A stretch of 64,000 nucleotides of DNA, from NCBI GenBank assembly GCA_963736015.1, contig CAVTNG010000009.1, positions 247,760 through 311,759 of the forward strand. Direction: 5' to 3'. Position 1 is the first letter of the stretch. Every line of letters starts with the position of its first letter. Both the position numbers and the translations under genes were made by a program. This document shows, piece by piece, positions 5,432 to 5,751 of this stretch. Origin of the DNA: an uncultured Chloroflexia bacterium. GTDB lineage: Bacteria; Chloroflexota; Dehalococcoidia; DSTF01; JACRBR01. The notes under the pieces were generated by a model. The model made no database searches. It had not been told where the DNA came from and worked only from the letters and a program-made list of their open reading frames with translations.

Positions 5432-5586
5432 TATTCAATCGTAGCAGACATGGCAAGCGGTGCCAAGCATGCGACGATATGGAAGTGGGAGGCGCGAGAG
5501 CGGGATGACGGGCGGGCCGGCGCGGTAGTCGCAATCCGGGCGGGCACTGATGTCGGACGACGGCGCATCGGCTAGTATGGAGGCCT

Positions 5587-5643
5587 ATGGCAGAGCGACA
5601 CATTCAGCGCGGCGTGGTAGTACCGGTACGGGATGGCCGTTGA
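5587..5643 (+). CDS. Val-rich leader peptide MAERHIQRGVVVPVRDGR (valS attenuator)
   Basis: GGAGG RBS at 5578-5582; codons GTG GTA GTA CCG GTA; followed by alternative hairpins and a terminator. Confidence 0.85.
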   Translation: MAERHIQRGVVVPVRDGR

Positions 5644-5671
5644 CCGGTGCGTGCGCGCGCGACTGGTAACG

Positions 5672-5694
5672 GCCCCGAGCAATCGGGGCTTTTT
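5672..5694 (+). terminator. Intrinsic terminator of the valS leader
   Basis: GCCCCGA-GCAA-TCGGGGC followed by TTTTT. Confidence 0.88.
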
Positions 5695-5751
5695 CGCGCC
5701 CGCAGGTCGACGCTACGATGATGGGTGAGCATCGGGCGAGGAGACAGGACG

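Follow-up and report, generated by a model that had tools for sequence, protein, structure and literature searches.

The 64,000-nucleotide stretch of contig CAVTNG010000009.1 analyzed here (the window) carries, upstream of valS, the gene for valyl-tRNA synthetase (ValRS), a leader that is very probably a ribosome-mediated leader-peptide transcription attenuator, one that would tune valS to the supply of charged tRNA-Val. The leader combines a mini-ORF (an upstream open reading frame; uORF) bearing a run of Val codons, competing RNA helices and an intrinsic terminator. The mechanism has long been known, but the family of such attenuators at valS in Chloroflexota appears to be undescribed. Where transcription starts, that the uORF is translated and that the leader responds to Val-tRNA are inferred from the sequence. 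Positions are those of the whole stretch; the genome containing the window is labeled G000 and its family f1, and the letters G, L and g stand for genomes, valS loci and genera, respectively.

A model reading the letters of the window had predicted the element (the original prediction), and when the window sequence was re-read all of the features it listed were present with exact coordinates (Table 1). The uORF (MAERHIQRGVVVPVRDGR) has four Val residues in five codons, three of them GTA. This codon, called uncommon in the original prediction, is the rarest Val codon genome-wide, making up 5.7% of Val codons in 1113 long open reading frames (ORFs) of G000 that are rich in GC at the third codon position; tRNA-Val(UAC) and tRNA-Val(CAC) are both encoded among the 31 tRNAs found in the genome. 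When both strands of the 2.7-Mb genome were searched for a small ORF with at least four Val in five codons followed by a terminator, the window site was the sole match, and a comparable Val-run uORF with terminator occurs in 1 of 78 unrelated valS loci; the leader arrangement is therefore unlikely to have arisen by chance.

All three predicted helices lie at their predicted positions, the antiterminator being slightly longer than claimed. The core of the anti-antiterminator (helix 1:2) pairs GTACCGGT (5620-5627) with ACCGGTGC (5643-5650); in the minimum free energy (MFE) fold it is extended by pairing of 5606-5617 with 5651-5666, within which the spacer between segments 2 and 3 pairs with 5606-5613, GACGCGCGC being conserved in alignments A3 and A4. 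The core of the antiterminator (helix 2:3) pairs GGCCGTTGACC (5635-5645) with GGTAACGGCC (5665-5674), and the full helix pairs GGCCGTTGACCGG (5635-5647) with CTGGTAACGGCC (5663-5674) in 12 bp with one bulged G, sharing 5671/5672-5674 with the terminator (helix 3:4). Helix 1:2 has a folding energy of -17.7 kcal/mol (-33.5 kcal/mol when extended, 5606-5666), helix 2:3 one of -25.5 kcal/mol as a hairpin (-18.5 kcal/mol for segments 2 and 3 as a duplex) and helix 3:4 one of -15.9 kcal/mol; the MFE structure of the free leader consists of helix 1:2 and the terminator. The terminator hairpin was missed by an automated scan. Segment 1 shares bases with the Val codons and segment 2 contains the stop codon, an arrangement that fits masking of these segments by a stalled and a terminating ribosome, respectively.

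The proposed mechanism would run as follows. Transcription would begin a few bases past the TAGTAT box, placing the mini-ORF at or beside the 5′ end of the RNA, and the first ribosome would trail RNA polymerase along the leader. With Val-tRNA plentiful, the ribosome would reach the TGA and cover segment 2, so that segments 3 and 4 would pair as the GCCCCGA/TCGGGGC-U5 terminator and transcription would halt before valS. When charged tRNA-Val is short, because of low valine or too little ValRS, the ribosome would stall on GUA GUA (CCG) GUA, the GUA codons being read by the minor isoacceptor tRNA-Val(UAC); it would then mask segment 1 and leave segment 2 free to pair with segment 3 once the latter is made, taking up the first 3-4 nt of the terminator 5′ arm and allowing read-through into valS. 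If the leader were not translated, helices 1:2 and 3:4 would form and, in the window's own sequence, termination would be the default.

Conservation across the family provides the main support for this reading, and bears out the trp/ilv-type layout of the original prediction. The 90-nt core of the leader was detected by BLAST in four other genera, and a covariance model (R1) built from six leader copies matched 29 of 36 family genomes, from 15 of 19 genera; there is almost always a single match in each genome, and frame, Val run and stop position are preserved. All 30 instances lie upstream of valS and on the valS strand, 29 of them 30-230 nt before the valS start; the 30th is a second copy in G021, where an inserted gene separates it from valS. 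Among the family genomes without an R1 match, genus g9 has a diverged version of the leader (MRSTAPSVTTVAV...) with a TACAAT box, MRSTAPSVTTVAVCAS..., three GTA codons and a terminator. The element has been lost from G003 and G015, and valS itself was not found in G019 and G001. In the wider order R1 scores in the family only (30 of 93 genomes), and among the 401 genomes of the class the sole additional true match is G129, which belongs to another family. Weak matches outside the family in G118, G361, G401 and G253 were judged spurious, since none adjoins valS.

The G129 leader (L143; G129:C130:6311-6433, minus strand) has a TACCAT box, the peptide M(M)SNLQRLTVVVP followed by a stop codon, three GTA codons, two hairpins and a terminator before valS. 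In G021 the two leaders, at 23687-23818 and 24549-24680 of contig C22, flank the inserted gene (L002:820-1392, minus strand), which encodes a 190-aa chloramphenicol-phosphotransferase-like P-loop protein (Pfam CPT, E = 1.8e-46). This gene sits under its own Val attenuator (MNSPASTRVAVPVRQAR, followed by a stop codon) and upstream of the leader and valS.

What the family has preserved in the uORF is its frame and its valine codons. Of 28 full-length leaders, 26 have a start codon (ATG, GTG or TTG) 5-12 nt (mode 7) downstream of a TAnnAT box, and the frame that it opens contains the Val run and ends at a stop inside segment 2; the box is displaced by a few bases in the other two, which then also fit. 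A stop codon (TGA, TAA or TAG) falls within segment 2 in all family leaders, and the uORF is exactly 18 codons long in 16 of the 26 leaders scored. The Val run takes the forms VVVPV, VVVAV, VVVSV, VAVPV, VVVVVPV, VVVVVVV and VVVVVVVEV (VSV being the weakest), and Val is kept despite synonymous changes (to GTC, GTG and GTT) and changes in the number of GTA repeats. GTA accounts for 93 of 110 Val codons (85%) in the family leaders vs. 5.7% genome-wide (binomial p ~1e-97, with shared ancestry ignored). The Val run and a C-terminal (A)R are retained, and the N-terminal half of the peptide is without conservation, as expected for a leader peptide.

That N-terminal half also bears on whether the mini-ORF might encode a functional micropeptide, or belong to a stand-alone small RNA that has its own terminator, in either case unconnected with the regulation of valS. 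A short transcript would indeed be released at each termination, and the trans-acting attenuator RNAs and leader peptides known from Sinorhizobium offer a precedent (PMC6614838, PMC7298713). A micropeptide whose N-terminal half is entirely unconserved is hard to credit, however; the element occurs before valS only, with the duplicated G021 copy as the sole exception, and an alternative helix overlapping the terminator would be purposeless in a stand-alone gene. We regard this explanation as extremely unlikely.

Because the start codon sits 5-12 nt past the TAnnAT box, the uORF is probably leaderless, its start falling on the 5′ end of the transcript or no more than a few bases from it. The T, A, A and T of the box are invariant in alignment A3 and its inner positions vary. 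At an equal distance from the box most family leaders have the C(C/T)GATG motif, which may be part of the promoter. The original prediction had assigned the GGAGG preceding the ATG as the ribosome-binding site; the motif is there, but the assignment is doubtful and was rejected, as relatives show ACCTCC, GCTGCG, GGCCGTG and similar sequences at its place and it lies 3 nt from the ATG. A pairing suggested by RNAalifold between a GCUAC box and the GUAGU of the Val codons was likewise dropped, covariation being absent and the TAnnAT pattern fitting a -10 box.

Compensatory changes support the antiterminator and the terminator, as anticipated if related valS upstream regions were aligned. The tests count sequences and not independent events, so their p values are optimistic. 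In the terminator 99% of cells are paired, 3 of the 7 pairs have double changes, and none of 500 shuffles and no slide reaches the observed value. For helix 2:3 the column count on the covariance-model alignment gives 67% of cells paired, a value that is low because the register of the helix slips by one base between genera, and that is still above all 500 shuffles; alignment-free duplex and swap tests were used in its place. By RNAduplex, 26 of 28 distinct leaders form a duplex of 9-13 bp between segments 2 and 3 (-12.7 to -24.2 kcal/mol), the remaining two being one with a 6-bp helix and L031, with a 7-bp duplex missing the terminator arm; the duplex takes in 2-4 nt of the terminator 5′ arm in 27 of 28. 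Compensated variants include GGCCGUU/AACGGCC, GGCCCGC/GCGGGCC, GGCUCGU/ACGAGCC, CCUCCG/CGGAGG and CCCGUG/CAUGGG, and when partners were swapped among leaders cognate pairs averaged -18.0 kcal/mol vs. -15.5 kcal/mol for non-cognate pairs (0 of 10000 permutations). Helix 1:2 is mostly conserved in sequence and has weaker support: 82% of its cells are paired, 3-7 of 500 shuffles reach the observed value on three measures, and the swap test gives 40 of 10000 (p ~0.004). The U-run after the terminator stem is interrupted in a few genera, for example as UUCUUCG.

The valine codons could also matter as nucleotides, in an untranslated RNA switch in which uncharged tRNA-Val (in an unrecognized T-box-like element), ValRS or another protein picks the helix and the Val codons are its binding sequence. 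Autoregulation of synthetase genes of the threonyl-tRNA synthetase type is established, the nucleotide sequences of GUAGUAGUACCGGUAC and of the hairpin stem are highly conserved, and T-boxes occur both in G000 and at valS in L069, another Chloroflexota locus. Nevertheless, the leader region (4800-6200) matched no T-box or other Rfam family, amino-acid leader families included, with cmscan at E up to 10; by sequence the element is thus unrelated to the curated leader families. The leaders lack a conserved UGGN bulge and a specifier-loop architecture, and because the hairpin loops are unconserved they do not mimic an anticodon arm. Above all, frame, start codon, stop position and Val identity survive synonymous changes and changes in GTA copy number that a binding site would not be expected to tolerate, which makes a switch of this kind highly unlikely.

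Folding with a ribosome footprint, which the original prediction had proposed as a check, gave results on both sides. In nascent-transcript folds of 27 leaders, ending before the terminator 3′ arm, a footprint on the Val run lets helix 2:3 tie up the terminator arm in 25 of the 27; with the footprint at the stop the helix forms in 0 of 27, a consequence of masking segment 2 in the test design. Without a ribosome the window leader and several others form helix 1:2 and leave segment 3 free.

Several observations weigh against the attenuator. In the ribosome-free nascent folds, helix 2:3 beats 1:2 at equilibrium in 17 of 27 leaders, so the default-off state is not general, at least thermodynamically. 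The antiterminator shares just 3-4 nt with the terminator arm, so that a 5-bp hairpin persists, and in full-length equilibrium folds of the stalled state the terminator is fully formed in 10 of 27 leaders, that of the window among them. Such full-length folds discriminate poorly, as a kinetic switch would lead one to expect, and kinetic control would indeed be required: helix 2:3 would need to form while segment 4 is still unmade. The trp attenuator is likewise kinetic. The conserved TAnnAT box is the one feature that places the start of transcription, and a generic promoter scan scored neither the TAGTAT site nor C(C/T)GATG and found no good -35 element. The assembly contains many indels (see below), although the leader itself keeps the family consensus length and frame. 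Finally, TTGACC and the hairpin are homologous to a promoter and 5′ hairpin of sister families, so that their conservation could be partly historical.

This homology is the basis of an explanation in which the conserved block is promoter DNA: TTGACC (5640-5645) would be a -35 element, the GTA-rich stretch UP-like, the hairpin a protective 5′ stem-loop of the valS mRNA and the mini-ORF incidental. Three sister families of the same order (f3, f4 and f5) have TTGACC-N17-TAGAAT/TACAAT in the homologous DNA. Downstream of it comes the same GGCCCCGA...TCGGGGCC hairpin, here lacking a U-run, and the GTA-rich stretch belongs to a conserved ~400-aa ORF upstream, of which it makes up the final dozen codons. 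The f1 leaders differ: a TAnnnT hexamer 16-19 nt past the -35-like hexamer is present in 6 of 8 sister loci and in 0 of 28 f1 leaders, and the U-rich tail after the hairpin, the upstream TAnnAT box followed at 5-12 nt by a start codon and the fixed 18-codon frame, and 2:3 complementarity with compensatory changes are all confined to f1. An internal promoter of the sister-family style was thus rejected for every one of the f1 leaders. For its own family the promoter explanation fails, and we give it a very slim chance of being correct; it does hint at a possible origin of the attenuator.

The tail of the ~400-aa ORF runs into the -35 box in f4 and f5; its last codons are Val- and GTA-rich (…GVVVDVEEGAR and …AVVDGEVVARLR, each followed by a stop codon), and a GGGGCC copy of the hairpin 3′ arm follows the ORF stop codon. 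The ORF matches no Pfam family, and G000 lacks a homologue. It is possible, though on balance doubtful, that the f1 attenuator was built from a promoter, a 5′ stem-loop and such a gene tail. Segment 2 (CGTTGACCGG) and the hairpin would then be homologous to the sister -35 element and 5′-terminal hairpin, and the end of the leader peptide (…VVVPVRQAR) to the end of the product of a lost 400-aa gene (…VVDGEVVARLR), each before a stop codon; in the sister families the C-terminal codons may already sense valine, and the near-exclusive use of GUA would report charging of tRNA-Val(UAC) and not valine in general. If true, the descent of a leader-peptide attenuator from these older parts could be traced; the sister families keep the apparent precursor parts and so offer a possible view of how such switches arise.

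The closest established parallel to the proposed valS attenuator is pheM-pheST of E. coli and other gamma-proteobacteria, in which attenuation likewise involves a leader peptide rich in the cognate amino acid, alternative hairpins and a terminator before the matching synthetase gene, with the same logic that scarce charged tRNA leads to more synthetase. The valS element differs in sensing Val and not Phe, in its occurrence in Chloroflexota, in having no sequence relationship to pheM, in a uORF that is probably leaderless and in the use of the rarest synonymous codon. The leader-peptide attenuators of ilvBN (ivbL) and ilvGMEDA (ilvL) in enterobacteria also use leader Val codons as a sensor and share the four-segment 1:2, 2:3, 3:4 design, but they control branched-chain amino acid biosynthesis and are multivalent (Val/Leu or Ile/Val/Leu), whereas the element described here is Val-only and would control a synthetase. 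Classical attenuators have been predicted at trpS and leuS in Streptomyces, with pheST of gamma-proteobacteria cited and with no conserved structure at other synthetase genes of Actinobacteria (Seliverstov et al., 2005; PMC1262725). Like the valS leader, these are synthetase leader-peptide attenuators of GC-rich, non-proteobacterial organisms predicted by comparative genomics; they differ in genes and phylum, and valS is not among them. In mycobacteria, leaderless polycysteine small ORFs are reported to attenuate downstream genes (bioRxiv 10.1101/834739). These ORFs resemble the valS uORF as proposed here in being leaderless 5′ mini-ORFs with a codon run for a single amino acid and a response to that amino acid, and differ in sensing Cys and in belonging to Actinobacteria. 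Their mechanism reportedly does not rely on an intrinsic terminator.

In Firmicutes the usual control of valS is the T-box riboswitch (RF00230). It resembles the valS leader in its position in the 5′ leader of a synthetase gene, its terminator vs. antiterminator output and its tRNA-charging signal, but it senses uncharged tRNA directly and without translation, and the valS leader fails the T-box model. The comparison with Firmicutes drawn in the original prediction thus holds as an analogy, the host being a member of Chloroflexota with no T-box at its valS leader. Switches from T-box to leader peptide were reported at hisS paralogs, leader peptides having until then been known only in Proteobacteria and Actinobacteria (Naville and Gautheret, 2010; PMC2965389).

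Documented leader-peptide attenuation is concentrated in Proteobacteria, Actinobacteria and a few Firmicutes, and the synthetase cases known or predicted are pheST, trpS, leuS and hisS paralogs (PMC1262725, PMC2965389). Full-text literature searches found no description of a valS leader peptide, in agreement with the original prediction. The present element would extend such regulation to valS and to the phylum Chloroflexota, and would provide an example of a putatively leaderless leader ORF built on the rarest synonymous codon, in a lineage that appears to pair T-boxes at leuS, thrS and ileS with a translated sensor at valS. For annotators, the covariance model covers ~30 metagenome-assembled genomes in which the mini-ORF is unannotated.

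Table 1. Features of the valS leader and its surroundings, with T-boxes of G000 and sister loci.
Feature	Location	Strand	Remarks
csoR-like gene, frameshifted	5110-5398	-	Divergent from leader
Conserved C(C/T)GATG motif	5547..5552	+	~20 nt upstream of -10-like box
-10-like box TAGTAT (family consensus TAnnAT)	5573..5578	+	Inferred promoter of leader transcript
GGAGG	5579..5583	+	3 nt before ATG; probably no working ribosome-binding site
Leader mini-ORF MAERHIQRGVVVPVRDGR	5587..5643	+	18 codons; ATG 5587, TGA 5641-5643
Regulatory codons GTG GTA GTA CCG GTA	5614..5628	+	Val10-12, Pro13, Val14
Segment 1 (GTACCGGTACGG)	5620..5631	+	5′ strand of 1:2 anti-antiterminator; MFE folds
Segment 2 (GGCCGTTGACCGGTGC)	5635..5650	+	Holds uORF TGA 5641-5643; partner is segment 1 or segment 3
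Spacer CGCGCGCG between segments 2 and 3	5654..5661	+	3′ strand of extended 1:2 helix
Segment 3 (CTGGTAACGGCC)	5663..5674	+	3′ strand of antiterminator; final 3-4 nt are the start of terminator 5′ arm
Intrinsic terminator	5672..5694	+	Stem GCCCCGA 5672-5678 / TCGGGGC 5683-5689, loop GCAA, T5 5690-5694
Shine-Dalgarno GAGGAG of valS	5738..5743	+	8 nt before valS ATG
valS (valyl-tRNA synthetase)	5752..8635	+	Putative regulated gene; three-frame translation, tblastn with an intact relative's ValS
T-box of leuS in G000	C9:330003-330227	-	
T-box of thrS in G000	C2:124495-124729	-	
T-box of ileS in G000	C10:246081-246340	+	
T-box of trpB-like gene in G000	C5:64714-64990	-	
Sister valS loci with TTGACC-N17 promoter and hairpin	L042, L049 (f4); L039, L045, L047, L050, L052 (f5); L043 (f3)		

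Upstream of the leader, a copZ-like gene follows the csoR-like gene on the minus strand, and both are transcribed away from the leader; because this neighbor is divergent, the plus-strand terminator ends no upstream gene. Downstream, valS is frameshifted at least four times in the assembly (near 5968, 6490, 6545 and 7798), and G000 has a completeness score of 51% despite comprising 2.7 Mb in 13 contigs, which points to an indel-rich (perhaps long-read) assembly rather than to pseudogenes. The nearest public ValS, with 81% identity, belongs to a record labeled uncultured Dehalococcoidia bacterium, and the next matches, at 50-57% identity, come from Chloroflexota and Firmicutes; by its sequence, the organism is a GC-rich member of Chloroflexota.

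The four T-box leaders found elsewhere in G000 served as a positive control for the RNA family search; the first of those in Table 1 alone passes the Rfam gathering score, and the T-box at L069 is above the Rfam threshold as well. A search of G000 for further leader-peptide attenuators returned two Cys-run matches only, on C8 and C9, of which the one on C8 was dismissed for having no attenuator features.

Other arrangements were seen at valS elsewhere. In L053-L057 (family f2) and in L038 (G015, in f1) valS has no leader; its start codon (ATG, or GTG in L038) comes 5-13 nt after a TATACT or TACACT box, and valS itself looks leaderless or nearly so. In L096 (~1600-1725), from a Dehalococcoidales metagenome-assembled genome, a second design precedes valS, consisting of TTGACA-N17-TAATCT, MKSNNSILVVVINT followed by a stop codon, and a terminator with T7.

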